A DNA stretch of 64,000 nt from Candidatus Latescibacterota bacterium (GTDB lineage: Bacteria; Latescibacterota; UBA2968): NCBI GenBank assembly GCA_965116885.1, contig OZ220741.1:3520001-3584000 (forward strand), given 5' to 3'. This document shows positions 38,022 to 60,989 of the stretch, piece by piece; the stretch's first letter is position 1; each line of letters begins with the position of its first letter. Made by a program: the position numbers and the translations under genes. The notes below the pieces were generated by a model. The model made no database searches. It had not been told where the DNA came from and saw only the letters and a list, made by a program, of their open reading frames with translations.

Positions 38022-38864
38022 TCAGGTGAGGTAGTGCGAGGGTGTTCTAAATTCGTGGGATTTCTCGTATTCGCTCGAGGGCTTCGCATTCCGAACTGTC
38101 TCGGGTACGTCACCGTCCCACCAACTGGGGGGATTGGGAAAGGAAAAGACGTCGTGCCAGGCAAGGAGTAGCGTTCGGCGTTTAGCTGTCTGGTTGGGCC
38201 ACGCGCCGTGGAGGATGCGCGCGTCTGCGATGATCAGGTCTCCTGCGTTTAAGGGGATATCTACCGCATCGGGGTAGTCTGCGAACGCGGGATGCGACAG
38301 GTCGTCGATCGCCTGAATCTCGGATCCGTGAGCCTTAGGCAGGATATCGTGCAGTTCGTGGCGTTTCCGATGGCTGCCGGGGATTATGCGGAGGCATCCA
38401 TTCTCGCGCGTGGTGTCCGTCAGGTAGTAGGACAAGAAGATGCGTATCGGCCAGGGCGTCGCGGCCTCGGGGCTCTGCCATTTCATGAAGTCCTGATGCC
38501 AGTAGAGGGGCGGGCCGTATCCGGGCTTAGATAGGATGATCACGGTGTCGTCCGATACGAGATTCTCGAGTCCAATTTGTCGGCAGGCTTCGAGTTGCGC
38601 AGGCTGATCGATGATCTCCTCGGCGATCGGATCGGGAAACCGATTCTCGGCTGTAGGCCTTCCCTCACGCCATCGGCGTTCCGTGCTAACGAAGATATCG
38701 CTGCCCTGGTACCGGATCTTGTGGGGAACTGTCACGCGTTCGAAGATGCGGTCGGACCATGTCCTGAGCCTGTCCAGCAGGTCCGTATCCATCACACCAG
38801 GTACAATGGTGTAACCCAACTCGACCAACTCCCGCCGCTTTACCAGCGCCTGCTCACTCGTCAT
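38022..38864 (-). CDS. PhyH-family dioxygenase
   Basis: WHQD, ENGCLRIIPGSH, LHGA and RRT. Confidence 0.92.
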   Translation of the reverse strand: MTSEQALVKRRELVELGYTIVPGVMDTDLLDRLRTWSDRIFERVTVPHKIRYQGSDIFVSTERRWREGRPTAENRFPDPIAEEIIDQPAQLEACRQIGLENLVSDDTVIILSKPGYGPPLYWHQDFMKWQSPEAATPWPIRIFLSYYLTDTTRENGCLRIIPGSHRKRHELHDILPKAHGSEIQAIDDLSHPAFADYPDAVDIPLNAGDLIIADARILHGAWPNQTAKRRTLLLAWHDVFSFPNPPSWWDGDVPETVRNAKPSSEYEKSHEFRTPSHYLT

Positions 38865-45293: not shown

Positions 45294-46142
45294 TTATGCT
45301 TTTTCCCGACGAGGCGTCACTCGCCAGTCGGTTCGCAGTTTGGCAACGCGGTCGGCTGGCGGCTGCAGGAAGCACTTGACTCTTTCACTGGCTTTCGCTT
45401 GCAGCTCAGGCCCGACGAGTTCCCAGGCGTTGTAGAACAGCCGGTCGCTGTTTGGTACGATGCGGATGTTCAGGGTGCGTCGGGGCTTGTGAGTCTGATT
45501 TACGCCCGCGCAATGCAGGCCCCCCGCGTTTACAATCAGTAAATCACCCGGATCGCCGGTCGCCTGGATCTTGTTGCTGTCTGAATCCGGCTCGGGATCC
45601 ATCATTTCGGGTTCGTCGGCTTTGAAACAATGTGTGCGCGGAATCAACCGGGTACCGCCATTTTCCGCTGAATAGCCGTCGAGCATAAAGAAGAACCACA
45701 GACCGTTGTGCTTGCCTTCGTCCGTGAGGCCGGGCCTGAAGTCGCGATGGAAGCGCCCCTGCCGCGCTTCCGGGTGATAGCGTACAGTGTTGGCAACGAG
45801 ATCTAAGAAATGGTAGGTGCCCAGAGCGCGTTCGCAGATCCCGTGAACGGTGTCGTGGTCGAGCAGATCCATGGCCGCTTTACCCCACATGAAACAGGCG
45901 CGGGCGTTCGGATTGATTGTGAAGTTGCGTTTTCCCTTTCCGTCGAGAATACGCACTTCGGGCAACTTCATCCCTCCTCGCCACTCGGCGATGTAATCAT
46001 CCGCAGCACGCTGGGCGATATCCCGAAGAGGATCGAGATACTCGGGCGCGATTTGCTCCCGCAGGATGACATAACCGTTTTCTTGCAGATCGGCTACATG
46101 TGCGTCCAATTCCTCGTCGCTCATTGGATGGACTGGTTGCAT
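45294..46142 (-). CDS. PhyH-family dioxygenase
   Basis: FHRD, ENGGTRLIPRTH, LHCAG and PRR. Confidence 0.9.
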   Translation of the reverse strand: MQPVHPMSDEELDAHVADLQENGYVILREQIAPEYLDPLRDIAQRAADDYIAEWRGGMKLPEVRILDGKGKRNFTINPNARACFMWGKAAMDLLDHDTVHGICERALGTYHFLDLVANTVRYHPEARQGRFHRDFRPGLTDEGKHNGLWFFFMLDGYSAENGGTRLIPRTHCFKADEPEMMDPEPDSDSNKIQATGDPGDLLIVNAGGLHCAGVNQTHKPRRTLNIRIVPNSDRLFYNAWELVGPELQAKASERVKCFLQPPADRVAKLRTDWRVTPRREKA

Positions 46143-46181: not shown

Positions 46182-48689
46182 TCAGTCTTTTTTTAACTCG
46201 GGAATATTGTTCGGCATAAAAGATATCTCTCGCATACCTTCGTCGCCCAAAAACTGAATTGTAACACCACCTATGGATAGCATGTGCTGCAAATCCTCAA
46301 TATTTCTCACCTTCTCATTGTCCACAGACAAAATCACAGTATCGCCCAATAACCCTACCTGAGCGGCTTCTGACTCTACTGGAACATCAATTACCAAAAC
46401 ACCATCATTGTGCTCTAATTCCACCGCCCCAATCACCGCAGATTCCCGACCATAATTTACCAGACTACGCAAGGTTGCTCCCATCCAGTCATACAGATCA
46501 GCATTGACATAGGTGCCCCAAAACTCAGCGTTTTTATCAAACGCTTGCCCCAGGCCAGACCAGATTCGCACATCAGATTTGAACCTCGAATCTTGCACGC
46601 CAAATTGATCCATAGGGAAATTTTTAAATCCGACCTCAGATCCAAATTTCGCCCGATAATCTCCAGATGATGGATTGTAAAAACCTGGATCACATGTTTT
46701 CGAATGCACGTCCAGACCCAACGCCCTGTGATCTTCCGGAGGCTCATAAACCGCAAACAGATTTTCATCCACCAAATTATCTTCTCCCTGGCAACCCGCC
46801 ATTCCCATTCCGCGCGGTGAATAAGCTTCTCGACGAACAAGAATATTTCGCCGAACCACATCGCCGCTATTGGGATACCAAACGTGTGGGCTGAATAAGG
46901 TAGAAATATTGTTCTCTACAGTTCGAAAAAAGCCTTCACGCAACTTGATACCACCTTGCAAGCACAAATTGCCATAAACGTGATAATGCCCAGACCCATC
47001 GTCTAAATCAATATCGTATCCATGCGCACATTGAATCCGATTGTGGCGCAAAACAATTGGATCGACACAATCCAACTTCGCCATCGTGCGCATGCGGGCG
47101 AATTCTTCAGGTGTTGCCTCGCCCTTTAGCTTCATCCAGTACCGATCCCTTCCCCACGAATTATAAGCTCCGTGTTCTCGCGTGGCCATTGACGTATCAA
47201 AAATATCGTTCCATTCAATCACATGTCCACCCCAACATCCATCGTTCACATTGATCGCAGCACGCGGCACATCGTAAATACTATTATGACTGACTGTAAT
47301 CTCTTTGGCCTTAGAAATGAACACACCTGCAATCTGTTTCTCTACACTGCCCAACTGCGTCATCAAATTGTCGTGAATCACACACCGGACCGGATAATTA
47401 TTGTTCTGAGGCCCTGCTTCTAAATCGACCAACTCATGTCCTTCATCCAGCATTTCAGACGGCAACTTTGCCATACTCTCATTCTCAAATGGCCTGCCAT
47501 TTACCATCGGTGTTTCACCCCGCATACCTTCAGGCCACCCCCACCAATGTGCCCATCGCGACCTCACGGCAGAATTATTTCCCTCAAGTAAAACAGCACT
47601 CGCACCCGTCTTTACAAACCGACACCCGCTCACAGTGACGTTCCGACTATAATTTTGAATAAAAACCCCATTCCCACCTATGCGCTCAAACGAGCAATTT
47701 TGAACGGTGCACAATTCAGCGCCTTCAAAAACAATAGCGCCTCCCCGATACACCTTCCAATCGCCACCACTTGGTATGACATCCGTTTCCATAAACGTGT
47801 AAGACGTATGGGTCAGTGTCAGCCCATCCAGAGTGATATAACAAACGGGGTTGTCCTCCGACCCTCGAAACTCAAACAAATGCCTCAGCACCACAACTTC
47901 CACTGTGGCATCGTCAAGAGTCTGTCCTTCTTCAGGCTTGAAATACAGTGTATGAGTTTCTCGATCTAAAAACCATTCTTTAGGCGCGTCCAATTCTTCA
48001 AACACGTTTTCAATAAACATCCGCCCTTCAGCCAACACATCATACGGATTGGTTCTTCGCCCACTGTTTTGCCACCCACCTTCTACTTTCCGATCCTTCT
48101 CGTGCTCAAAGGTGTAAACCCCATCTGGATCTTTTTCCAAAATACGAAAGTGCAATGTACCCCACCCCAGCGACATCATCCCGTGTACAAAAGCACCCAC
48201 CGGATTGGCATATCCTTTTAAGCGCGCCGAATCAATGGCATCTTGAGAGGTCTCTGGCGAAACCCATCGAATGCTGCCATCAAAAAACCCATCTCGCGGA
48301 TCAGCATTTGGATAGCGACAGCGAACCATCTTTTCACCATTGATAAAAAGCTGATCAAAATCCAAGCCCTCAGGCACTTTAGCCTTCACCAGCCCATCTC
48401 CGGCGTCTTCCCAAATCAAGTCCACAGACTCTGCCCCACTAACAACAACCTCTTCGTCCTCATAAGCCCGATAAACAATGGGCGCATCTTTCGTCCCAGA
48501 ATCTTCTGCACCAAAAATGAGTGTCTCGTTCAAATAGTAAGTTCCCTGTCTCAAACACACTGTTATCGGCCCGTTTTGTTTGCATGCACGAACAACCTCT
48601 TGCGCCCGTTTTAGCGTAGCAAGAGGTTGTTCTTCGGTGCCAGAATTTCTATCATCGCCTTTAGATGAAACAAAAAGCGTCTGCCCCAT
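46182..48689 (-). CDS. Right-handed parallel beta-helix protein with C-terminal PDZ-like domain (GH141-like)
   Basis: GDDRNSGTEEQPLATL, ENVFEELDAPKEWF, HNSIYDVPRAAI, NSWGRDR and DIDLDDGS. Start at MGQTLFV after AAGGAG. Confidence 0.8.
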   Translation of the reverse strand: MGQTLFVSSKGDDRNSGTEEQPLATLKRAQEVVRACKQNGPITVCLRQGTYYLNETLIFGAEDSGTKDAPIVYRAYEDEEVVVSGAESVDLIWEDAGDGLVKAKVPEGLDFDQLFINGEKMVRCRYPNADPRDGFFDGSIRWVSPETSQDAIDSARLKGYANPVGAFVHGMMSLGWGTLHFRILEKDPDGVYTFEHEKDRKVEGGWQNSGRRTNPYDVLAEGRMFIENVFEELDAPKEWFLDRETHTLYFKPEEGQTLDDATVEVVVLRHLFEFRGSEDNPVCYITLDGLTLTHTSYTFMETDVIPSGGDWKVYRGGAIVFEGAELCTVQNCSFERIGGNGVFIQNYSRNVTVSGCRFVKTGASAVLLEGNNSAVRSRWAHWWGWPEGMRGETPMVNGRPFENESMAKLPSEMLDEGHELVDLEAGPQNNNYPVRCVIHDNLMTQLGSVEKQIAGVFISKAKEITVSHNSIYDVPRAAINVNDGCWGGHVIEWNDIFDTSMATREHGAYNSWGRDRYWMKLKGEATPEEFARMRTMAKLDCVDPIVLRHNRIQCAHGYDIDLDDGSGHYHVYGNLCLQGGIKLREGFFRTVENNISTLFSPHVWYPNSGDVVRRNILVRREAYSPRGMGMAGCQGEDNLVDENLFAVYEPPEDHRALGLDVHSKTCDPGFYNPSSGDYRAKFGSEVGFKNFPMDQFGVQDSRFKSDVRIWSGLGQAFDKNAEFWGTYVNADLYDWMGATLRSLVNYGRESAVIGAVELEHNDGVLVIDVPVESEAAQVGLLGDTVILSVDNEKVRNIEDLQHMLSIGGVTIQFLGDEGMREISFMPNNIPELKKD

Positions 48690-48693
48690 AAAA

Positions 48694-48857
48694 TCACTCC
48701 TTATCATAACCTGTTTTTCGATCTCCATCGACTTCCTTAGACCAAGTCGCGTACAGTTCCCAGGCATTAATGCTTTTCATCTCTTATCCTGTCTCTGTGG
48801 ATGTGTAAAAGGGCTGATCACGATATTCGGGTAGGAACCGCTGTTGTTATCACCCAT
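48694..48857 (-). pseudogene. Composite spacer of three sulfatase remnants
   Basis: 48727-48760 matches the C-terminus of 52925-54310 (27/34 nt). 48770-48786 matches the 52911-52927 stop/start junction (16/17). 48816-48857 encodes a sulfatase-like start, MGDNNSGSYPNIVI. Confidence 0.75.
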
Positions 48858-48859
48858 CA

Positions 48860-50167
48860 TCACGATCCTTTCGCCCGTTGAAACCAGTCAATGAGTTGGC
48901 TTTTAAGATCGTTATAAATCTCAGGATATTGACTGGCCAAATCATTGGCTTCGCCAATATCCTGATCGAGCTTGTACAATTCAAATTGCAATTCTTCAAT
49001 AGCCGGAATAGCCTCGGCAAATTGCCCGCGATGATTAGGGCCTGTACCAACCAGTTTCCAATCGTCTTTTACCGCTCCCATTTTCCCAAACAAATCCCAA
49101 AACACATACCGCCCTGGCAAATCTTCTTGCCCCTGTGATCTCAAATGCGCAAGCAAACTCACTCCATGAACTGGATGCTGTCCATTCATTTTGGGAATCT
49201 CAATGCCAGCCGCATCCAGCACAGTGGCAAACAAATCAAAATGCACAGCACCTGCATCAGATACCATCCCTTTGGGAATAACACCCGGCCACTGCATCAC
49301 CGCAGGCACGCGGATTCCACCTTCATATGTCATTCCTTTTTGCCCGCGTAAAGGGCCATTATTGCCCGGAAATTTATCAATCATTGCACCATTATCGCTC
49401 AAGTAGATGACAAGTGTGTTATCTACGATAGCCAACTCATGCAATGTCGCCATGATTTTACCCACACCATCATCCATATGATCCAGCACCGCACAATAGT
49501 CGCGCTTGGGGAACTCAATACCGCGATCTTCATACTTTTTTAACCACTCGGCTTTGCCCGATGTTTTGGGTGCCTGTTCTCGCCACAAGGGACCATGCAC
49601 AGCATTGTAAGGCACATAACAAAAAAACGGCTTATCACGATGTTTCCGAATAAAGTCAATCGCATAACCAGTAAACACATCCGTCAAATGATCTTCATGC
49701 ACCATGGGCTGGTCATTGTGCAAAAGGCGACTACCATCAAAAGGCCAATAGGGGTGTGCACCACCCAAAAATCCGACAAATTCTTCAAAACCGCGTTCAT
49801 TGGGCACATTGGGTGCATCATATCCCAAATGCCACTTGCCAAACATGCCAGTTTTATATCCTGCTTCCTTCAAAAACTCGGGCAAAAGTTTTACATCATC
49901 ATGAATGCGCCTTGGCAACGTATCTGTTTTCTGCCCCGGCAGTGATGGGCCACGCCACATGCCGCATTCCAAAGAATACTGCCCAGAAAAAAGAGATGCA
50001 CGCGTTGGCGCACAAAGTGGATTGACCCTCAACTGTGTAAAACGCACCCCATTTTTTGCAATCGCATCCATCGTTGGTGTATCGACCTCTGTATCCCAAT
50101 AACAACCCGCATCTCCATACCCCTGATCGTCTGTAACAATGATGAGAAAATTTGGTTTTGTGGCCAT
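48860..50167 (-). CDS. Sulfatase (chimeric 5' end)
   Basis: TDDQGYGD, CAPTR, GKWHLG and SDNG. The first 19 codons are nearly identical in DNA to those of 52925-54310. Confidence 0.93.
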   Translation of the reverse strand: MATKPNFLIIVTDDQGYGDAGCYWDTEVDTPTMDAIAKNGVRFTQLRVNPLCAPTRASLFSGQYSLECGMWRGPSLPGQKTDTLPRRIHDDVKLLPEFLKEAGYKTGMFGKWHLGYDAPNVPNERGFEEFVGFLGGAHPYWPFDGSRLLHNDQPMVHEDHLTDVFTGYAIDFIRKHRDKPFFCYVPYNAVHGPLWREQAPKTSGKAEWLKKYEDRGIEFPKRDYCAVLDHMDDGVGKIMATLHELAIVDNTLVIYLSDNGAMIDKFPGNNGPLRGQKGMTYEGGIRVPAVMQWPGVIPKGMVSDAGAVHFDLFATVLDAAGIEIPKMNGQHPVHGVSLLAHLRSQGQEDLPGRYVFWDLFGKMGAVKDDWKLVGTGPNHRGQFAEAIPAIEELQFELYKLDQDIGEANDLASQYPEIYNDLKSQLIDWFQRAKGS

Positions 50168-50172
50168 AATGA

Positions 50173-51015
50173 TCATTCCTTGAGTGCGGCAGCATCCTCA
50201 GCGATCCACTCTTTCCATCTCTCTTCGTCGGGTTGCATAAATCCACTGTTGGCTCGCCGAAATACATTTGCATCTTCGCCCAGGAGGCGCAGTAGGCGAC
50301 GATTGCCAGTCTCTCGTGCTCGCGCTTTGACTGCTTGAGAAATTGGGCCTGAATAATTGGCTCTGTGTTTAAGCCAGGAGTGATTCATCGTTAAAAAGAA
50401 AAGGTATCGGTATTCCTTTGAGTAATTGGCCGTTCCCGAGTGTACTATCGCATTGTGAAATACGGCGATATCTCCAGATTTGGGATAAAGGATGACTTCG
50501 TCAGGATGGGGTTGTTTTCTTTCTTCTTGTGTTAAAGATATTGCCTTCATGTGAGAACCTGGAATAATTCGCAGGGGGCCAATTTCATCATCGAGATCCT
50601 GTAAATAGCTCAGGGCATTGAAGAGTAAGGGCCTTTGGTAGATGCCTTCTTGAGGAAACTCGGCGAACATGTCCCGATGAAAACCCAGTACTGGATTTGT
50701 GTTTGGGTCCTGTGGCGCCGTGCGCCGATATGTGATGGATTCAAGCTGGACATGAGGGCCGACGATCATTTCAGCAAAGTCCAGGAGGCGCTTATTTGAC
50801 AAGGCAGAGAGAATGAGATCGGGTTTGTGTTCTAACACATCGACAAAGACCTGGGGTCGGCTGCCATCGGGATTGGGGAGGCGATCACCGATTTCTTCAA
50901 ATGAATCTCGCATGGCTTTGACCCAGACATCGTCCAGCATCTTTGGGAAAAGTGTAAATCCAACTGTTTTGAATTCTTTTAGGTGTTCTTCGAGGGATTT
51001 GGGCTCTTTTTGCAT
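50173..51015 (-). CDS. PhyH-family dioxygenase
   Basis: FHRD, GPLRIIPGSH and VHSG. RBS AGGAGG. Confidence 0.9.
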   Translation of the reverse strand: MQKEPKSLEEHLKEFKTVGFTLFPKMLDDVWVKAMRDSFEEIGDRLPNPDGSRPQVFVDVLEHKPDLILSALSNKRLLDFAEMIVGPHVQLESITYRRTAPQDPNTNPVLGFHRDMFAEFPQEGIYQRPLLFNALSYLQDLDDEIGPLRIIPGSHMKAISLTQEERKQPHPDEVILYPKSGDIAVFHNAIVHSGTANYSKEYRYLFFLTMNHSWLKHRANYSGPISQAVKARARETGNRRLLRLLGEDANVFRRANSGFMQPDEERWKEWIAEDAAALKE

Positions 51016-51058
51016 TTCAGCCTCCTGGTGTTTCAGTTTTCTTCATTTTGGGCAGAAT

Positions 51059-51360
51059 TCAGGATTGGAAAATCGTCCCGGGCCACGGGTAAGCGTTGGA
51101 TCCAGCCTCATCATCGATGGGGCCTTCCGGCAGTGTGGCTTGCCAATCCAGGACCTGCTCTGACATCTGCTTGACCAGGGTCTCTTCAAATTTGGCGTGA
51201 TTGACGAGTTCCATCGGGTCTGCAGGAATGTTGTATAGTTCGACACGGCTTCTGTCCGGTTCGAACGTGGATATCCTCAGGGCCGTTGTCAGCTGAGAAG
51301 ATGACAATCGTATTGTCGGAAAGGCCCAGTTGATCCAGCCGATCCCTGAGCCGTCCAATA
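51059..51360 (-). pseudogene. Sulfatase pseudogene (two fragments joined out of frame)
   Basis: IGRLRDRLDQLGLSDNTIVIFSADNGPED is joined near 51264 to the C-terminal VELYNIPADPME...YPWPG in another frame. The N-terminal half is absent. Confidence 0.88.
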
Positions 51361-51375
51361 AGGATAAAACACAAA

Positions 51376-51402
51376 GTAGGCGGTAAGCCTTTACGCCCCT
51401 AC
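51376..51402. repeat. Degenerate GTAG-type REP-like palindrome
   Basis: GTAGGcggtaagcctttacgccCCTAC, single copy in the window. Confidence 0.35.
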
Positions 51403-51445
51403 GGTGCCAGGGCTGTCAGGTAGGAGTGTCCCCATCAATGGCGTA

Positions 51446-52921
51446 TCAATAACGAGGGTCGCCAGCTTCAATTGTTCGTTCCAGCAGCCTGCTGCGCATG
51501 GCTTCTTCCCGATCTCGATAATCCGGGTTTCCCGCCAGATTCACCAGTTCGCCCGGGTCGTTCTGCAAGTCGTAAAGTTCAGAACGATCATTCACATAAT
51601 GTGCGTATTTCCACTTCTCGTTTCGAACCATGCGACCCCGAGAAAGGAAGAACGTTCCCGACTCAACCAGCGGCAATTCAGGTACGGGCTCCGTCCGACT
51701 TATGCCGGCTTTCAGCGCGTCCAGTTCTGCTTCTGGTCCTCCCTCTGGCAATGGCTGACGGCTGCCAACTTCCGCATAGGTGCAGTCTCTTTCTGGAGCC
51801 ATACCCGACATCATATCTGTCACACTTCTACCCTGAACACCCGGCGGGATCGAGATTCCGTTACTCTGGAGTAATGTAGGCATCAAGTCGATTTGCTCAA
51901 TTTGCAGTGCGTTTGTTGCACCATCCCGTGCATGTTCCAAACCCCTTACGATCAATGGGACCTGGACAATGCAGTCGTAGAATGCAGCTGTTTTCCGAAT
52001 GAGTCCGTGTTCGCCCAGGTACTCACCGTGGTCTCCTGTGGCAACAATGATGGTGTCGTCCCAACGACCAAGCGCTTTTAGTCCATCAAAGAATTTGCCC
52101 AGGCATTCATCCAGGTGCCTGAGCATGCCGTAGTAGTACGTCATTGTCTGCCGCAGCTGCTCGTCATCCATGAGATGCAGCCATCCGCCGTGATAATAGA
52201 CTTGCTGAACGAATGGTTTTGAGTCCAATTCATCCTGAGGTCTATGTGGGAGAGGCATGTCCTCTGGTTTGTACATCGTGGCAAAAGGTTCGGGAGCCCG
52301 ATAGGGCGGATGAACATCGGAAAAGCTCAACCACACAAACGAAGGCTCGCCCCCCTTCCTTTCGAGATAATCGAGGGCCTGATTCACGTTGGCTCTTGCT
52401 GGCGTTTCAGCAGGATCGAAAGGGTAGGTTCCGCCATACCAGATTGGGTTTGGGTGATCTCCCCAACGGAAACGTCTTGTCTGTGATTCGAACACAGATG
52501 GGTCGATGGGTATTGCAGGCCCAGGAAATGGCTTCCCATAGGCTTCTCGCTGCTTTTGCCGAAGTGGTGACTCTTCAATACACGCTTCAAATCCTGCTGT
52601 TTTGGCATCTGGAAAACAGTGGTTTTTCCCAAATAGGCCACAGCCGACACCAGCATCTTTCAAGAGCCCTGGCAGATGAACCCTTTCCTTTTCTTGCATC
52701 AACAGCGTGTTGTCTCTGGAACCTGTAACGCTGGGATAACGACCCGTGAAAAATGCGACCCGTGATGCGACGCAGAGCGGAGAAGGTACGGTGCAGTTTT
52801 CAAACCTGATGGCTTCGCTGGCAAAGCGATCCAGATGAGGTGTCGCTCCGACGGGATTGCCATAGCATCCTAATGCGCGAGCGGCAAGATGCTCAATGGT
52901 GATTACGACGATGTTTTTCAT
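51446..52921 (-). CDS. Sulfatase with atypical N-terminal metal motif
   Basis: CVASR, GKNH and TGDHGE. ITIEHL replaces the usual DD/DQ. Confidence 0.9.
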   Translation of the reverse strand: MKNIVVITIEHLAARALGCYGNPVGATPHLDRFASEAIRFENCTVPSPLCVASRVAFFTGRYPSVTGSRDNTLLMQEKERVHLPGLLKDAGVGCGLFGKNHCFPDAKTAGFEACIEESPLRQKQREAYGKPFPGPAIPIDPSVFESQTRRFRWGDHPNPIWYGGTYPFDPAETPARANVNQALDYLERKGGEPSFVWLSFSDVHPPYRAPEPFATMYKPEDMPLPHRPQDELDSKPFVQQVYYHGGWLHLMDDEQLRQTMTYYYGMLRHLDECLGKFFDGLKALGRWDDTIIVATGDHGEYLGEHGLIRKTAAFYDCIVQVPLIVRGLEHARDGATNALQIEQIDLMPTLLQSNGISIPPGVQGRSVTDMMSGMAPERDCTYAEVGSRQPLPEGGPEAELDALKAGISRTEPVPELPLVESGTFFLSRGRMVRNEKWKYAHYVNDRSELYDLQNDPGELVNLAGNPDYRDREEAMRSRLLERTIEAGDPRY

Positions 52922-52924
52922 CTC

Positions 52925-54310
52925 TTAGCTCCTATCGACTTCCTCAGACCAGGCTCTGTACAATTCCTGCAGGTGCTCAACGACCCTGGGATGCTGGTCA
53001 ATCAGATCTTGACTCTCGGAGGGATCTTCCTTCAGGTTAAACAGGCAGGTCTTCTGGAGAAGCTCTGTGCGTTCAACGATCCCATCGCAGGGCTCTCGAC
53101 CTCTCCTGCCACCTTTATGCAACAGTTTCCAATCACCAGAGCGCACGGCATAACTGTCGCCCCAGCGCCAGAAGAGGTCTCGCTGGTCTGCGATTTTTGT
53201 GACATCTTTTGGGATGGCTTGACCATCCAAACCTTCTGGCAGATTGATGCCTGCCGCCTGCAGACAGGTCGGAAGAATATCGAGCGTTGAGATTGTCCTG
53301 TCACAGATCGTTCCAGATGCCGACTCATTTGGACAGGCGAGAATGAACGGCACGCGAATCCCGCCTTCCCAGAGCGTAAACTTGCTCCCGGCAAGCGGCA
53401 GGTTGCAGGCACCGGTGTTCGGTGCGCCTCCGTTGTCTGAAAACATGATCACGATGGTGTTGTCGGCAAGCGATAGCTGATCCAACGTGTCCAGGAGGCG
53501 ACCGATATTGTCGTCGAGGCAGTTGAGGTTCGCCAGGTAGTATCTGCGAAACTCATCTGCATTGATCTCGCCGAGGGTGACATACCTTTTGAACCAGTCT
53601 TCATAACTGCCCATGGTCTCCGGATCGTAGTTTGGAATCTCCCTTACGCCGTGCTTGTCGAGGTATCGCCTGGGCACCTGATGAATCAGGTGATGCACGG
53701 AGTTGTAGGAGAGCGTTACAAAGAAAGGTTCTTCCTGATGGCTCTCGAGAAAATCGATTGTCGCATCGGTGAAGATCTCCGTCAGATAACCTTCTCCAAA
53801 TTCTTTGTAACCCCGATTGTGCATGAGTGGGCCGACAACCGCGCTGTGCCCTTTTGGATCGGGCGTGCGATCTTCGATATCTCTGGCGAGGAGGAAATAG
53901 TCGTGGCCGTGTGCCGAGAAGCCGAGAAACTCGTCGTAGCCGTGGTTCAGCGGGTATTCGTGAGCTTCGTGATCGTGAAAGCCCAGGCCGTAATCGTTCT
54001 TGCCGAAACGCGCTGTGGTATAGCCGTTAGCCTTCATGATTTCGGCGATGTTCTTTTCTGTTTCAGGATGTCCGCATAAAAAGGAGGATTTCGGATCCCA
54101 GCGCACCTGGTGCCTCCCCGTATTCCATCCAGCACGCGAAGGGCTGCACACCGGGGCTGTGACGTAGGCCTGTGAAAAGAGAACGCCGCGCTCAGCGAGC
54201 CGATCCATATTCGGCGTCTGCACATCTGGCGCATGATGACTGAATGCAGTCAGATCTCCGTAGCCCTGATCGTCTGTAACAATGATGAGAAAATTTGGTT
54301 TTGTGCCCAT
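52925..54310 (-). CDS. Sulfatase
   Basis: TDDQGYGD, CSPSR and SDNGG. GKND replaces GKWH. Confidence 0.92.
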   Translation of the reverse strand: MGTKPNFLIIVTDDQGYGDLTAFSHHAPDVQTPNMDRLAERGVLFSQAYVTAPVCSPSRAGWNTGRHQVRWDPKSSFLCGHPETEKNIAEIMKANGYTTARFGKNDYGLGFHDHEAHEYPLNHGYDEFLGFSAHGHDYFLLARDIEDRTPDPKGHSAVVGPLMHNRGYKEFGEGYLTEIFTDATIDFLESHQEEPFFVTLSYNSVHHLIHQVPRRYLDKHGVREIPNYDPETMGSYEDWFKRYVTLGEINADEFRRYYLANLNCLDDNIGRLLDTLDQLSLADNTIVIMFSDNGGAPNTGACNLPLAGSKFTLWEGGIRVPFILACPNESASGTICDRTISTLDILPTCLQAAGINLPEGLDGQAIPKDVTKIADQRDLFWRWGDSYAVRSGDWKLLHKGGRRGREPCDGIVERTELLQKTCLFNLKEDPSESQDLIDQHPRVVEHLQELYRAWSEEVDRS

Positions 54311-54441
54311 AATGATCTCCCCGGTCTTCCAGGTGTATTCTTCATTCCAATTCCTTGTCTTGTCGTCCTGTCAATACCCAGTTTATCGTGGCCATGGTGA
54401 TGAGTTGCACCTGACCTTTGCCATCCACAATGTGGAAGAGC

Positions 54442-55920
54442 TCACGCAAACCCGCCGAGAAGCTGCTCTCTGGTCATTATCTTGACTGGCGGCAGGTTAT
54501 CGACCATTCCCGCGTCCGTGCGTCGAAGCTCATCAATGGTCCCTTGCCGCAATTGGGCGAGCAACTCGTGGTAATCGGATTCCAAAGCGAGGTTTTCCAG
54601 TTCCTCGGGGTCATTCTCGAGATCGTACATCTCTTCGATCTCCTCGGGGACGAGCCAGCGGATATATTTGTACTTTCCCGTGCACAGAGATACCCACCAG
54701 GGGATAGGAGGATTGCCTATTGGCTCACCACAGCCGACATCGGTGTCTTCTCCAAAACAATGACCCGTACACTCCATCAGCAGCGGGCGATCCCATTCGG
54801 CGTTGGGGTCGGAGAGCAATGGTGTCAGGTCCTCCCCGTGCATCTTCCAGGGTTGTTCCATGCCGATCAACGAGAGAAAGGTCGGCGGGATATCCTGGCC
54901 GCCGATTGGCACATCGCATACTGTGCCTGCGGGAATTTGTCCCGGCAGCCGCATGATCATCGGCGCTTTGATATTGGCATCATAGGGCGCCACCTTGAGT
55001 CGAAAGCCGTGCTGTCCCCAGGCGAATCCCTGGTCCGACGTAAAGACGACCAGGGTATCATCCAATTGCCCCATCTCCTCTATGGCGCCGATCACCCTAC
55101 CGACCCCTTCATCCAGGGCGCGAACGCCCCGGTTGTATTGTTGTTCCCAATCGGTGAGGGTCCGTCCATCCCGGATGCCTACCGGTTGGCCCTGATCTCC
55201 CTCACGCCAAACACCATAGTCCCGCATATGTGTCGCCTTGGTCGGGCGCGGCGGGTAGATGTCTTCTGGCGTGGGGACCTGGGAAACATCTGGATAATCG
55301 TGGAGATGGCGGTCAGCCACTTCCCAGGGTCCGTGTACTGCGTCATAGCACAGCCAGAGGTGCCAGGGCTTATCCGGTTCTTCTGCCCGTCCACGGAGAA
55401 ATTCAAGTGCATACTCCGTGTAGTTATCGGTAGAATAGCCGCCAACCGGTTCCGGCGGCCCCCCGTTGATACTCATGCTCTGATTGACATAATAGGGCCC
55501 GTATTTCTCGGGTTGGCTGTGGTCCCAGATGGCAGAAAAATCCCAGTACCGACCGTGACCATGATCGGGACCTGTGTGCCATTTGCCGACGATGCCTGTG
55601 TACCAACCGTTCTCACGGAGATTCTCGAGCCAGTACGGACACTGGTCTGGATCGCGGACATAGTTTGGGTAGCTCGTGGGCAGGTGCATGCTCATCACGC
55701 CATGCGGCAATTTTCCGGTCAGGTACGTGGCGCGCGAAGGCGCACACCAGGCACTGGTATAGCAGTTGGAAAAACGCATCCCCTCATGGGCGAGGCGGTC
55801 GATGTTTGGCGTACTGATCCACGAATGCGCCTCGGGATAGCAACTCACAGACCGAAAGCTCTGATCGTCGGTGAAGATGTATAAAATGTTGCGCGGATGG
55901 TTCGATTGATCATCGTTCAT
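54442..55920 (-). CDS. Sulfatase
   Basis: IFTDDQ, CAPSR, GKWH and TSDQG. Confidence 0.93.
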   Translation of the reverse strand: MNDDQSNHPRNILYIFTDDQSFRSVSCYPEAHSWISTPNIDRLAHEGMRFSNCYTSAWCAPSRATYLTGKLPHGVMSMHLPTSYPNYVRDPDQCPYWLENLRENGWYTGIVGKWHTGPDHGHGRYWDFSAIWDHSQPEKYGPYYVNQSMSINGGPPEPVGGYSTDNYTEYALEFLRGRAEEPDKPWHLWLCYDAVHGPWEVADRHLHDYPDVSQVPTPEDIYPPRPTKATHMRDYGVWREGDQGQPVGIRDGRTLTDWEQQYNRGVRALDEGVGRVIGAIEEMGQLDDTLVVFTSDQGFAWGQHGFRLKVAPYDANIKAPMIMRLPGQIPAGTVCDVPIGGQDIPPTFLSLIGMEQPWKMHGEDLTPLLSDPNAEWDRPLLMECTGHCFGEDTDVGCGEPIGNPPIPWWVSLCTGKYKYIRWLVPEEIEEMYDLENDPEELENLALESDYHELLAQLRQGTIDELRRTDAGMVDNLPPVKIMTREQLLGGFA

Positions 55921-56012: not shown

Positions 56013-57086
56013 TCAGACCTCAGAGCCTGCAAGAGTGCGAACAGTCTCGCTCCAATCATCCCAAAGCCCCGGATCTTCCGGGCGAGGCTCTGGCGGGGGA
56101 ACTTCTGGCCCAAGTTCAAGTTCGTGGATTTTTCTCACGTTGGGCGGTGGCGATGGTCGTGGGCCTTTGACATAACGGCCGTTGTATGTTCTGTTATATA
56201 CAGATTTTTTGTAAGCATCATAAAGAATCATCTGTCGAATCTGCGGAGGATTGCTGTAGTTCCGCGTTGCCGAGTGGAACATTCGCCCGTGCCACAAAAC
56301 CACATCGCCCTCGTCACCAAAAAATTCAAAGGGTTCAATGTCGGCGAGTGCGTCCTTGAGTCCTGCAGGCTGCGGCAAAACAAATGCCGCAGCGCCGCTT
56401 TCCGGGTGGGGCGCATGTAGAATTGAATAGCGGGCAAGATCTACAGAGTCCGGCTCTGCTTCGTAGAGCAAACGGTGACTGCCGGGAAAAAGGGCGATGC
56501 CACCTCCACCTTTGGGAACCTGGTCAACGTATGCGCTTGCCACCAGATGCATCGGCTCGGGATCAATGTGTGCACCGGCACGGACGGCATCCGCCAGAGC
56601 AGGTGAGTCGCTCTTGCGCTCTCTCGGCAGCACGCAGTACATACCGCGCAACTCCTTGCCACCCCAGACCGGCCAGCCACGCAACCGACTTCCACGCGGA
56701 TCTGGATCGGCCGCGGAGGAAGTTACCTCTGGTGTCACAACTTCACCTTCGCCGAGAAGTTGCTCAAACCACGGGAATACACGGCGTGGAAGCAAGTTGA
56801 TTAAGTCCTCGTCGCCAGAGAGTTCACGCAATCGCCAGCCGTGGGCACCGGTGCGATCATTCATGCCATCAGGGGTGCTTTGACGTTCTTCCTCAGGGAC
56901 ACCGTTTAACCAGGTATTAGGATCATCCCGGCGCAAATGACTTGAGGTATTCCCTGCCCACAACCTATCTCGTGCAGCAGCACAAAGTTTGGGGTCGAGG
57001 ATCTTTCGTTTTACGAGGAATCCATTCGTGATAAACTGTTGGATCTCCTCTGTGCTAAGGGGTGTCAATGCTGTATCCATAGACAT
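56013..57086 (-). CDS. PhyH-family dioxygenase
   Basis: FITNGFLV, AHID, GGGIALFPGSH, GDVVLWH and FHSA. Confidence 0.85.
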   Translation of the reverse strand: MSMDTALTPLSTEEIQQFITNGFLVKRKILDPKLCAAARDRLWAGNTSSHLRRDDPNTWLNGVPEEERQSTPDGMNDRTGAHGWRLRELSGDEDLINLLPRRVFPWFEQLLGEGEVVTPEVTSSAADPDPRGSRLRGWPVWGGKELRGMYCVLPRERKSDSPALADAVRAGAHIDPEPMHLVASAYVDQVPKGGGGIALFPGSHRLLYEAEPDSVDLARYSILHAPHPESGAAAFVLPQPAGLKDALADIEPFEFFGDEGDVVLWHGRMFHSATRNYSNPPQIRQMILYDAYKKSVYNRTYNGRYVKGPRPSPPPNVRKIHELELGPEVPPPEPRPEDPGLWDDWSETVRTLAGSEV

Positions 57087-57137: not shown

Positions 57138-58487
57138 TTACACTTGCTTCCTGCGAAATGCGTGGGGATTGACGATTTCATATCCCCATCGATCCAACAA
57201 TTCATGCCCGTTCTCAAACGCGTCGTTCTGTTCCCTCAATAGGTCTGAAAGCAAACCTTCCAGATGCGTTTGAACAGATTCTGCCTCAGGCCGACCACAA
57301 AGGTTCTCCAACTGATAAGGATCTGCCTCATTGTCATACAACAACCAGGGCCCCTCCAGGTCGCGCACATAAGTATAACGGCTCGTGCGAACGCCTCGAT
57401 ATTCTCTGCCACCATGTTCATAAGAATAATTGGCAAACGGAACGTAGCATCCAAAAAGTGAAGCCTCCAAAGGCGCATCGGCTTCACCAAGCATGTGTTT
57501 GGCAAAACTCACCCCTTCGACGCCTTCCGGTACAGGCGCGCCTACCAGATCCAGCAAGGTTGGCATCATATCCGGGATACCAAAAGGGGTGTCGATTTGG
57601 CGACCAATCCCATCTGGCAAACGCAACAGAAAAGGCACAAGAATGGATTCATCCCAGGGCCGTATTTTTCGATCGTGACCTTGTGACCCATTCATTTCAC
57701 CGTGGTCAGACGTAAACACAAGAATCGTATCCTCTGTCATCCCGAGGCGTTCAAGTGCTTCTTCAACACGCCCAACACAGTGATCAAGTGCCGTAATATG
57801 CGCATAATAACCCCACATATCATTCCGGGCAGTCGCCTCACACTCAGCAGGCACATTGTCTCTCAATACGATTTCATCTTCATTGTAGAGCGCTCTGTAT
57901 TCTTCCGGCACTTTGTGGAAAGGGTTATGAGGCGGGCCGTAGGATACAAAAAGGGAAAACGGATCTTCCTTCTCCTCTCTGCCTTCCAGATATTCAATCG
58001 CACAATCTGTCTGTGCAAACGCATCGTATCCTTCCCACTTTTTCATAATGCCCGAGTCATCATAATAGGGCGAATCGTAATAATTGTGCGAGCATTCGTG
58101 CGCGCGCCAAAAGTCAAAGCCCAACCGTCGCTCAGGTGGGATGAAATTCTGCTCGTGGGTATCCCCGTCCAAATGCCACTTGCCAATATATGCGGTGTCA
58201 TAACCGTGTGACTTTAGAACCTCAGCGAATGTGGTCGTATCGGGCTCAAGCCGAATCTGGTTTAAAAAAATCCCATGCGTCAGTGGATATTGCCCGGTCA
58301 AAAGACAGGCACGAGCCGGACAACAAACCGGGCACGTTGACACAGTCGTATCCAACCGAATACTCTTTTGAGCCAGGGCATCGAGATTGGGTGTCTTAAC
58401 ATTTGGATCTCCCGCATACCCGGTCGCCTGTGCGCGCCACTGATCGGTCAAAATGAATACAATATTGGGCTTTTCTTTCTTGGCCAC
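57138..58487 (-). CDS. Sulfatase
   Basis: ILTDQWR, CCPAR, GKWHL and TSDHGE. RBS GAGGAGG before GTG. Confidence 0.93.
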   Translation of the reverse strand: MAKKEKPNIVFILTDQWRAQATGYAGDPNVKTPNLDALAQKSIRLDTTVSTCPVCCPARACLLTGQYPLTHGIFLNQIRLEPDTTTFAEVLKSHGYDTAYIGKWHLDGDTHEQNFIPPERRLGFDFWRAHECSHNYYDSPYYDDSGIMKKWEGYDAFAQTDCAIEYLEGREEKEDPFSLFVSYGPPHNPFHKVPEEYRALYNEDEIVLRDNVPAECEATARNDMWGYYAHITALDHCVGRVEEALERLGMTEDTILVFTSDHGEMNGSQGHDRKIRPWDESILVPFLLRLPDGIGRQIDTPFGIPDMMPTLLDLVGAPVPEGVEGVSFAKHMLGEADAPLEASLFGCYVPFANYSYEHGGREYRGVRTSRYTYVRDLEGPWLLYDNEADPYQLENLCGRPEAESVQTHLEGLLSDLLREQNDAFENGHELLDRWGYEIVNPHAFRRKQV

Positions 58488-59561: not shown

Positions 59562-60989
59562 CTAAACACTCGGCAAAGGCACAGTATCTCCTGTTTCATG
59601 TTGCCACAATCGAATCTTCGCCGCCATATCGCGAATGCGATCGCGATGTTCAGGAACATCAAACAGATTGTTTTCTTCATAGGGATCTGTATTAAGGTCG
59701 AACAACTCACACTGATCACCAGCACACAAATTCAACTTCCAGCGATCACCTGTCACCACCGATCGCCAGGGCAATGTCGCCATCAAGTTAATGCTTGGGT
59801 TCCCTAAATTGCGATCGCCAATCCCATTCCACTCCATAAATGCAACGTGATTCTTCAAATCGCGTTCACCGGTGAGTGCATCAGCCAAACTCTCCCCTTC
59901 ACACTGATCTGAAATTTCAATGCCCGCCAGATTCAAAAGCGTCGGCACCAAATCCGCATGCCCAAACACACCATCGATTCGTTTTTGTTCCTTATTTAAC
60001 CACGGCACACTGAGCAAAAACGGCACTCGCGCAGACTCTTCGTAAAACGTCCGCTTTTCCATCATGGCATGATCGCCCACCATTTCCCCATGATCACTCG
60101 TGTAAGCAATAATCGTATTCTCCAGTTGCCCTGTCTCTTCCAATGCCTGAATGATCCGCCCCACAGCATCATCCACAATCTTCATATTTCCGAAGTATTG
60201 CGATCTCACTTTCCGCCATCCGAATTCCGTACTTAAATCTTCACCTGCCTCCTTCTTCGTTGCATAATGCTCTGCTCGCACCCGATTAAATCGCGAATGC
60301 CCTTCAGGCTGTTTCAAAAACGTCGGGCCAACCGGCAATTCCTCAGGATCGTACAAACCGTCATACGGCCCTGTATATGGAGGGTGCGGTTCAAACGTAC
60401 TGCACACCAGCAACCAGGGCTGATCGACATTTTCTCGAATAAACCGATCCGCTTCCTGCGCGACAAACGCCCCGACCTGTTGTTCCGCTGGCAAACGCGC
60501 GCGATCTCCTGCAGAAAATTGTTTCAAGTCCGGTGCCAAATGCGAGGGTGGTTCAACGCCCTGCGCCACCAACCACTCATAGTGGGAACTCATCGGCGCA
60601 TCTTGAATCGTATTCAAATGCCGCAAATTATCCTGAATACTGATCCACTCATCAAACCCATGTTGGCGAACGGTATCGTTGCCCAAATGCCATTTGCCCA
60701 TATATGCCTTGCGATATGTATCTGGCATCATTTCCGCAATCGACTTTGTATCTTCCCGTAGATGAATCCCATTCGCCACACATCCGTGCGAATGAGGGTA
60801 CAGCCCAGACATCAACGTACCCCGCGATGGCGTACACACAGCCTGACCAACATACGTATTCTCAAAAACAAAAGACCGCTCCGAAAGCGCATTCAAATGC
60901 GGCGATTGAATCCAATCATTGCCGTAACACGACATGGTATCTGTGCGTTGCTGATCTGTGAACACAAAAAGAATATTCGGTTGATTCAT
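59562..60989 (-). CDS. Sulfatase
   Basis: VFTDQQR, CTPSR, GKWHLG and TSDHGE. Confidence 0.93.
   Translation of the reverse strand: MNQPNILFVFTDQQRTDTMSCYGNDWIQSPHLNALSERSFVFENTYVGQAVCTPSRGTLMSGLYPHSHGCVANGIHLREDTKSIAEMMPDTYRKAYMGKWHLGNDTVRQHGFDEWISIQDNLRHLNTIQDAPMSSHYEWLVAQGVEPPSHLAPDLKQFSAGDRARLPAEQQVGAFVAQEADRFIRENVDQPWLLVCSTFEPHPPYTGPYDGLYDPEELPVGPTFLKQPEGHSRFNRVRAEHYATKKEAGEDLSTEFGWRKVRSQYFGNMKIVDDAVGRIIQALEETGQLENTIIAYTSDHGEMVGDHAMMEKRTFYEESARVPFLLSVPWLNKEQKRIDGVFGHADLVPTLLNLAGIEISDQCEGESLADALTGERDLKNHVAFMEWNGIGDRNLGNPSINLMATLPWRSVVTGDRWKLNLCAGDQCELFDLNTDPYEENNLFDVPEHRDRIRDMAAKIRLWQHETGDTVPLPSV

Follow-up and report, generated by a model that had tools for sequence, protein, structure and literature searches.

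Two sulfatase genes with a common start

The window analyzed here, i.e. the whole stretch of 64,000 nucleotides (nt) between positions 3,520,001 and 3,584,000 of contig OZ220741.1 of a Candidatus Latescibacterota bacterium, contains an island of sulfatase genes encoded on the minus strand, two of which, termed A and B, open with almost the same DNA sequence ( Table 1 ). The genome that holds the window (G000) is a single contig of 5,557,749 bases with 51% G+C, and was compared with the genomes of other species of the same genus (G001 to G020; 21 genus genomes with G000). The products of A and B match the sulfatase domain PF00884 with 195 and 184 bits, respectively (cut-off 25). Formylglycine-dependent (type I, S1) sulfatases carry a C/S-x-P-x-R motif for formylglycine and an N-terminal DD metal site. 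In the alignment of both proteins, the former reads CAPTR in A and CSPSR in B, and the stretch DDQGYGD is present in both. Also, 16 matches to the family of the maturation enzyme (FGE-sulfatase, PF03781) score over the cut-off in G000.

The A and B proteins are 32% identical over 487 aligned positions, and closer paralogs of each of them, at 34-36%, exist elsewhere in G000. At their very start, 18 of the first 19 residues are the same. The underlying DNA block is identical at 61 of 64 positions, with an exact core of 42 nt (50121-50162 and 54264-54305), as had been predicted originally and was confirmed on the sequence. It consists of a 7-nt leader (GATCATT), the ATG and codons 1-19, reading M(A/G)TKPNFLIIVTDDQGYGD, and identity collapses immediately on either flank. 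An in-frame ATG of A is also found at 50176, overlapping the stop of the upstream PhyH gene (ATGA, 50176-50173).

Table 1. Features of the A/B region (positions are those of the window)
Feature	Coordinates	Strand	Description
Shared block at gene A	50111..50174	-	7-nt leader and codons 1-19 (MATKPNFLIIVTDDQGYGD)
Shared block at gene B	54254..54317	-	7-nt leader and codons 1-19 (MGTKPNFLIIVTDDQGYGD)
Gene A	48860..50167	-	Cys-type sulfatase, 435 aa, no signal peptide; A-family body with B-family head
Gene B	52925..54310	-	Cys-type sulfatase, 461 aa, no signal peptide; old resident
B leader	54311..54389	-	79 nt; a leader ~90% identical precedes A in G004, G014 and G020
A 3' untranslated stretch	48787..48859	-	In relatives, the final ~34 nt serve as the leader of gene C
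C junction relic	48769..48786	-	TAAGAG, then nt 1-12 of C (ATGAAAAGCATT); the A-C junction of G012 has the same sequence
B-type 3' end relic	48694..48768	-	Core 48727-48756, LYATWSKEVD
PhyH-family dioxygenase gene	50173..51015	-	Directly upstream of A
Sulfatase gene relic	51048..51445	-	Relatives have the intact gene (448 aa); lacks 368 nt at 51259/51260
Gene C (sulfatase)	51446..52921	-	Follows B in G000
Right-handed beta-helix gene	46182..48689	-	Likely true start ATG 48689 behind AAGGAG

In G000 the block occurs at these two places only, the next match being just 16 nt long (blastn against the whole 5.56-Mb genome). Its core, with up to three mismatches, was recovered at 14 places in nine of the 21 genus genomes, each at the start of A or B, and no occurrence beyond these starts was found among 53 genomes of the order. 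A 27-nt core of the block gave no matches in a scan of one metagenome, a result that says nothing on its absence in nature.

Common descent of the shared block

With a profile derived from nine of the window's sulfatases, 179 sulfatase-like open frames were recovered in G000, 178 of them at E < 1e-10. In an all-against-all blastn comparison of these 178 genes, including 150-nt flanks, the A/B block was the top short match within coding sequence and the second overall. The top one is an intergenic repeat, as are several other good matches, and others sit in pairs that are similar along their entire length. The original prediction had also proposed that resident families attract more of their own kind, and that this could explain the enrichment in sulfatases; with just one of 15,753 gene pairs sharing a 5' block, this proposal finds no support.

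For 50 of the 178 genes the pattern of the DD motif was caught, allowing 1225 pairs to be compared over the same 64 nt in register. Identity averaged 31.7/64 (sd 5.4), and the runner-up pair reached 48/64, its longest run being 19 nt, compared with 61/64 and a run of 42 for A and B. Even pairs with 14-15 identical residues out of 19 agree at merely 37-48 of the 64 bases. Under the codon usage of the sulfatases, the probability that at least 15 of the 17 codons for identical residues use the same codon is 4.5e-5, and 2.8e-9 when multiplied by that of the seven identical leader bases, to be set against the 15,753 gene pairs. The A/B pair is by far the strongest outlier among the ~178 sulfatase genes. 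Since its identity far exceeds both the register background and the expectation from codon choice, the block is common to A and B by descent and not by protein constraint.

Further short, nearly identical DNA blocks lie within conserved motifs inside the genes of sulfatase pairs whose proteins share just 25-45% identity. One of them is an exact match of 39 nt in a pair at 36%, another spans 48 nt with 92% identity in a pair at 28%; examples outside the window are the genes at 3382504-3383985 and 786634-788106 of the G000 contig. These blocks may represent further micro-conversions. Also outside the window, an intergenic repeat of ~74 nt, 97% identical between its copies at about 1129074-1129147 and 3988138-3988211 of the same contig, adjoins several sulfatase genes, with shorter copies close to two more.

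Three heads of gene A

Full-length A genes, with 97-100% protein identity, occur in ten of the 21 genus genomes (split into two pieces in G003), the next best matches being ~40% identical. Three different heads precede their bodies. Head (a), found in G011, G012 and G013, follows the PhyH stop with the leader CCAGGTAGATCA(T/C)T and then encodes MxTKPNIVLVVSDDQG, with codons ATG (G/A)CC ACA AAA CCA AAT ATT GTA CTC GTT GTT TCA GAC GAT CAG GG. The A proteins of these three genomes read KPN-IVLVVS-DDQGYGDAGCYW and their genes lie behind the same PhyH gene and leader as in G000. Head (b) occupies the same place in G000, G003, G007, G015, G017 and a deleted copy of G020; its codons 7-12 are TTT CTC ATC ATT GTT ACA (FLIIVT), as in B, and the five full copies have lost 10 nt of leader between two GATC. 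Head (c), of G004, G014 and G020, consists of a 79-nt leader ~90% identical to that of B in G000, followed by ATG GGC, and keeps the B form through codon 11 before A's own TCA.

Gene B is present in seven genus genomes and, as a partial copy, in G006. In six genomes it carries the block, behind three unrelated leaders. Its head differs in G013, where B is intact (459 aa) and begins ATG ACG TCG AAA CCG AAC ATT CTC ATC ATC GTC ACG, and in G006. Six genomes contain both A and B, and in five of these the block is common to both genes; in the sixth, G013, neither gene has the block and the two heads agree at 42 of 57 positions. No site of the block varies among the six B genes that carry it. Windows of 58 nt vary at 6.8 sites on average, yet 65 of 1328 such windows have one at most, and this invariance is only suggestive of youth.

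The N-termini of the closest homologs were compared next to those of the genus. A-family homologs outside the genus are 57-71% identical to A, and the DD motif could be located in 118 of 119. None of the 118 has FLIIVT before DD and none starts these six residues with F, the usual type being I/V-V/L-L-I/V-V-S/T/A/N. In contrast, among 106 B homologs at no more than 88% identity FLIIVT occurs in 16, ILIIVT in 18 and an initial F in 44, and within the genus nine of 11 B proteins have FLIIVT. Given that FLIIVT is missing from all 118 A-family homologs and frequent among those of B, A of G000 bears a head of the B kind, and head (a), with IVLVVS, is A's own.

A triplet count of A from G000, A from G012 and B was used to place the breakpoint. 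The two A genes differ at seven sites within nt 4-36, where the rest of the gene would lead one to expect 0.37 (P = 1.3e-7), and at 14 sites in the remaining 1252 nt. At six of the seven head differences, those at nt 19-34, A of G000 matches B. Carrying a B-family head on an A-family body, A of G000 is a true chimera, in agreement with the original prediction. Overall, the leader and first 16 codons are of B kind, and from GGG-TAT of DDQGYGD on the gene follows the A lineage; the switch falls in the DDQG(YGD) codons, where the anchor had been anticipated. That the family motif alone served as anchor does not fit, the shared stretch holding a non-coding leader and silent sites as well.

Codon 2 is GCC in A of G011, as in G000, indicating that this codon belongs to the gene at the PhyH slot. 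On this ground the imported tract lies between nt 6 and nt 47 and spans at least 16 nt, with its right end within GACGATCAGGG, in the DDQG codons. The native-headed A shares the leader and codons 1-6 with B at 30 of 32 positions.

A B-type relic downstream of gene A

The stop of A is followed by 74 nt that end in the leader of C, the C junction relic, ~9 nt of filler and the core of a relic (48756-48727) that belongs to the sequence GAA CTG TAC GCG ACT TGG TCT AAG GAA GTC GAT. Compared with the end of B (last 30 nt before the stop region), the core is identical at 27 of 30 positions in G009 and G013, 26 in G015 and 23 in G000, G003, G007 and G017. A 28-residue frame with the relic finds the C-terminus of B as its best match among 4127 open reading frames, at an E value of 0.16 that is weak alone. 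Past the stop, hand alignments of the relic to the two types of B 3' flank gave two weak fits that compete with each other. Among 31 genomes of the family the relic is present in G000, G015 and G007 only. Divergence from B is similar at the head (61/64) and at the tail relic (27/30), and the A module is bracketed by a B-type head and a B-type tail. A 3' remnant of the old gene had been predicted just downstream of A; a B-type relic is indeed found there, and it does not abut A, from which it is separated by the untranslated stretch, the C leader and 12 nt of C. The 18-nt C junction ends the A module exactly as in G012, which indicates that the A piece came from a genus genome where C already followed A.

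Homologs of the beta-helix gene in other phyla were inspected for signs that the relic arrived with this gene. The nearest one outside (61% identical) has no upstream sulfatase, and some sulfatase lies within 3 kb upstream at 14 of 79 such loci, a figure that is uninformative on the origin of the relic. Taken as its longest open frame, the beta-helix gene would begin at 48767, and the ATG at 48689 is the start conserved in relatives. The 26 extra codons that result from the former overlap the B-type relic in a different frame.

Recent spread and rearrangement in the genus

Third codon positions of the ten A genes are 98.2% identical (minimum 96.1%), against 85.3% for rpoB in the same ten genomes. 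Corresponding values are 84-88% for B, three PhyH genes and the reductase (87.8% for B among seven genomes), and 93% for both C and the sulfatase upstream of B. The beta-helix gene, with 97.9% in five genomes, is as young as A. With third positions at ~98% and rpoB at 85%, A has evidently spread lately between species of the genus, as expected of the incoming gene that had been proposed. In species with rpoB at 85-86%, both A and the beta-helix gene reach ~98% at third positions, pointing to a recent spread of both.

The bodies of A form three tight groups that match the three head types. Over the ~1250 nt beyond the first 60, differences number 1-5 within (b), 9-13 between (b) and (c), and 12-16 between (b) and (a). 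Head types are scattered on the rpoB tree (one gene, quick search). Over 300 nt upstream of the block, G000 differs from G007, G003 and G017 by 18, 13 and 3 mismatches, the nearest of which lies 11-40 nt from the block, and over 300 nt downstream by 1, 0 and 0. Because divergence drops across the block, the head is the left edge of a tract lately exchanged between species.

Gene order, as mapped by DNA conservation, varies in nearly every genus genome. A sits behind the PhyH gene in most of the genomes that bear it. In G004 and G014 it follows a different PhyH gene, with the B leader between, and in G020 the full A also has the B leader, behind a PhyH remnant (88 of 357 residues). C comes directly after A in G004, G012, G014 and G017, and after the second, deleted A of G020, whereas a third PhyH gene takes this place in G013 and G003. 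In G009, which has no A, the PhyH gene is followed by 76 unrelated bases and the beta-helix gene. Deletion stumps were also observed: A is cut after 182 nt in G011, C is cut after 141 nt in G017, and the internal deletion in the second A copy of G020 leaves the head and the last ~50 nt. In this genus crossovers recur in the same head: G004, G014 and G020 have the whole B leader and head before A at B's slot, before C. Arrangement (c) shows that a B head before an A body arises in the genus, by replacement or by deletion between direct copies.

Origin of the mosaic

In our view the block is, with high probability, a recombination joint, and A of G000 a B-headed mosaic. Two explanations do without such an event. 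Selection at the nucleotide level on the translation start region, or convergence on a conserved motif, would agree with the region being A/T-rich and less structured than shuffled controls (z = +2.05 at the A start), as expected for a good start; with silent choices agreeing at 15 of 17 codons (P = 4.5e-5 before the leader is counted), no other sulfatase pair above 48/64, the same genes bearing other heads in relatives and no Rfam match, this is very improbable. A false join at a short repeat is conceivable in a metagenome-assembled genome from a community with several close relatives, where variant junctions co-occur in the same runs. However, A and B each carry the block in five separate assemblies (G000, G003, G007, G015 and G017), and Logan contigs from four public runs of four studies extend to the core from the unique sequence beside each copy. 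These contigs end within the 42-nt core, as expected of a genuine repeat that exceeds the word length of the assembler, and do not bridge it. Misassembly, by which the original prediction could have been refuted, is accordingly disfavoured and scarcely credible.

As to the route, we favour replacement of the interior of a B-type copy by the A body, to which we give about an even chance, because one event suffices and both brackets are accounted for. DNA from a relative in which A precedes C would have entered a B-type copy located between the PhyH and beta-helix genes, which has since been lost. The incoming piece would have comprised the A body with its 3' untranslated stretch, then the leader of C and C's initial 12 nt. 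On the left side, pairing would have taken place in the ~64-nt head, partly common to A and B-type genes, with resolution within the identical GACGATCAGGG; on the right side, an illegitimate join would have been made to the last ~45 nt of the B-type copy, leaving the B-type head and tail as brackets. The right-hand join (ATT followed by AATGCCTGG...) has no evident homology. The sequences show the mosaic itself, the families to which head and body belong, the youth of A, the tail relic and the other combinations of head and body, whereas we infer the order of events, the former B-type copy and how recombination proceeded at either end. This is the route of the original prediction, in which an incoming sulfatase recombined into a duplicate and inherited its start, and the data support its mosaic but not its exact route; in G011-G013, A lies at the same slot with its own codons 7-12 and needed no B duplicate.

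Several observations weigh against body replacement. Searched with the relic sequence, 31 family genomes yielded three bearers, in each case of a relic and never of an intact B-type copy at the PhyH slot. No displaced B gene at A's slot was found with the B protein in the 20 other genus genomes, and no third bearer of the block turned up, which occurs at A or B only, in 9 of 53 genomes of the order. The C junction and ~9 nt of filler lie between A and the relic, which may stem from a separate deletion, and the identical stretch at the right-hand crossover is just 11 nt. In G017, G003 and the second copy of G020, A bears the B-type head and no relic is present. Native A already matches B in its leader and codons 1-6, allowing a simple patch conversion, and the different head of B in G013 and G006 means that B's block could itself be an import.

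Nearly as good an account, though one that we hold only tentatively, is ectopic conversion of a short patch onto a native-headed A behind the PhyH gene, with a separate deletion afterwards. The copied tract, 16-41 nt long (codons 7-12; nt 6-47 at the outside), would have come from a B-type head at a distance of 4 kb or from DNA of a relative, and a later deletion would have removed C past its 12th nt through to the end of a B-type copy, leaving the tail relic. The parental form of A exists at the same junction in three genomes (G011-G013), one of which, G011, shares codon 2 GCC, and on both sides of the patch donor and recipient have identical sequence (leader and codons 1-6 on the left, GACGATCAGGG on the right). 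The relic-free B-type heads of G017, G003 and the deleted copy of G020 fit this account, and deletions that leave stumps are common in the island (A in G011 and G020, C in G017, the 51048-51445 relic). Two events are needed, however, plus a lost B-type copy beside the beta-helix gene, and the account does not explain why the A module should lie between a B head and a B tail. Transfer in the opposite direction, with the block native to the A lineage at the PhyH slot and copied onto B over B's own start, is improbable. It would explain the B starts with other silent sites in G013 and G006, the three unrelated leaders that abut the block in B of different species and the invariance of the block among six B genes, and every silent difference between the block and the B head of G013 goes from G/C to A/T, i.e. 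in the style of A. Against it, FLIIVT is absent from the 118 A-family homologs and common in the B family, and IVLVVS is the head native to A; this direction may apply to the leader and codons 1-6 taken alone.

Relation to known systems

Ectopic conversion between bacterial paralogs resembles the present case in the tract of near identity that includes silent sites, in the close location and direct orientation of diverged paralogs, and in the unconverted forms kept by relatives. Classic examples, e.g. the duplicated elongation-factor genes, involve nearly identical paralogs. Here, in contrast, the partners are 32% identical and the usable homology is ~64 nt at the gene start, part of it a non-coding leader.

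At Rhs, contact-dependent inhibition (CDI) and type VI effector loci, displacement of C-termini has been proposed to proceed via homology-facilitated illegitimate recombination (PMC5361080). As in the route favoured here, these systems have a constant 5' anchor, an incoming module that replaces the rest and an old 3' end orphaned downstream. They differ in having a long constant part and exchanging a toxin tip with its immunity gene, whereas here the anchor is 19 codons, the exchange takes in the complete catalytic body of a metabolic enzyme and the single orphan tail does not abut the new gene. Homology-facilitated illegitimate recombination itself has been described in transformable bacteria and in E. 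coli conjugation (PMC3240628). It likewise combines homologous pairing on one side with an illegitimate join on the other, although here, without involvement of the upstream PhyH gene, the anchor would be very short. Ectopic gene conversion is also reported for the glucosinolate sulfatase genes of plutellid moths (bioRxiv 10.64898/2026.10.12.758433), which belong to the same enzyme superfamily and show conversion between paralogs, in animal genes and another biological setting. Site-specific cassette systems such as integrons and shufflons have a recombinase gene and recognition repeats at the borders of their cassettes; the joints seen here are gene starts, gene ends and deletion stumps, with no common repeat. 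A limited search of the open-access literature retrieved no report of mosaics of this sort among bacterial sulfatases, which is no proof of their absence.

Mosaic genes and displacement of gene bodies are already known and no new principle or mechanism is involved; this is an ordinary though clear mosaic gene, set in a cluster that is shuffled fast. What makes it valuable is the series of intermediates and alternative products kept in sister genomes of an uncultured symbiont, which allows the rebuilding of a metabolic gene cluster in a sponge-associated bacterium to be followed nearly at base level. It also suggests that recombination can use as little as ~64 nt between genes whose products are 32% identical, and that family motifs together with a common leader can act as joints.

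Cellular location and organization of the island

In all 118 A-family homologs, at least seven residues (median 28) precede the xPN stretch, and many of these extensions are plainly signal peptides. Because close homologs of A elsewhere have such N-terminal extensions and A has none here, the gene start may decide cellular location. None of the sulfatases of the island has room for a signal peptide. In 113 of the 178 sulfatase-like frames of G000, fewer than 15 residues of open frame lie upstream of the profile start, so that no signal peptide is possible; those of the window include the frames at 48860, 51446, 54442, 57138, 59562 and 61030. Most sulfatases of this organism would therefore be cytoplasmic, unlike their nearest homologs elsewhere. 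A more speculative proposal, which we regard as unlikely, is that the leader and ~16 codons constitute a portable start module, short, unstructured and devoid of a signal peptide, that is placed before incoming sulfatase bodies. If true, bodies with secreted relatives would be turned cytoplasmic, and co-resident species would have a shared handle for swapping bodies at fixed slots.

Read from its 5' side on the minus strand, the island consists of sulfatases at 59562-60989 and 57138-58487, a PhyH gene (56013-57086), a sulfatase (54442-55920) and B. After B come C, the ~400-nt sulfatase relic, the PhyH gene, A, a 170-nt spacer and the beta-helix gene, beyond which lie another PhyH gene and an aldo-keto reductase. 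An Rfam scan of 48000-55000 gave nothing up to E = 1. The sponge-associated PAUC34f, sister of Latescibacteria, is described as relatively rich in sulfatases (PMC7081726). The runs in which this stretch is found are mostly sponge metagenomes, and the undeleted form of the 51048-51445 sulfatase is also present in contigs of two public runs. Between 38022 and 57086 of the window, PhyH genes (38022-38864, 45294-46142, 50173-51015 and 56013-57086) alternate with sulfatase genes on one strand.

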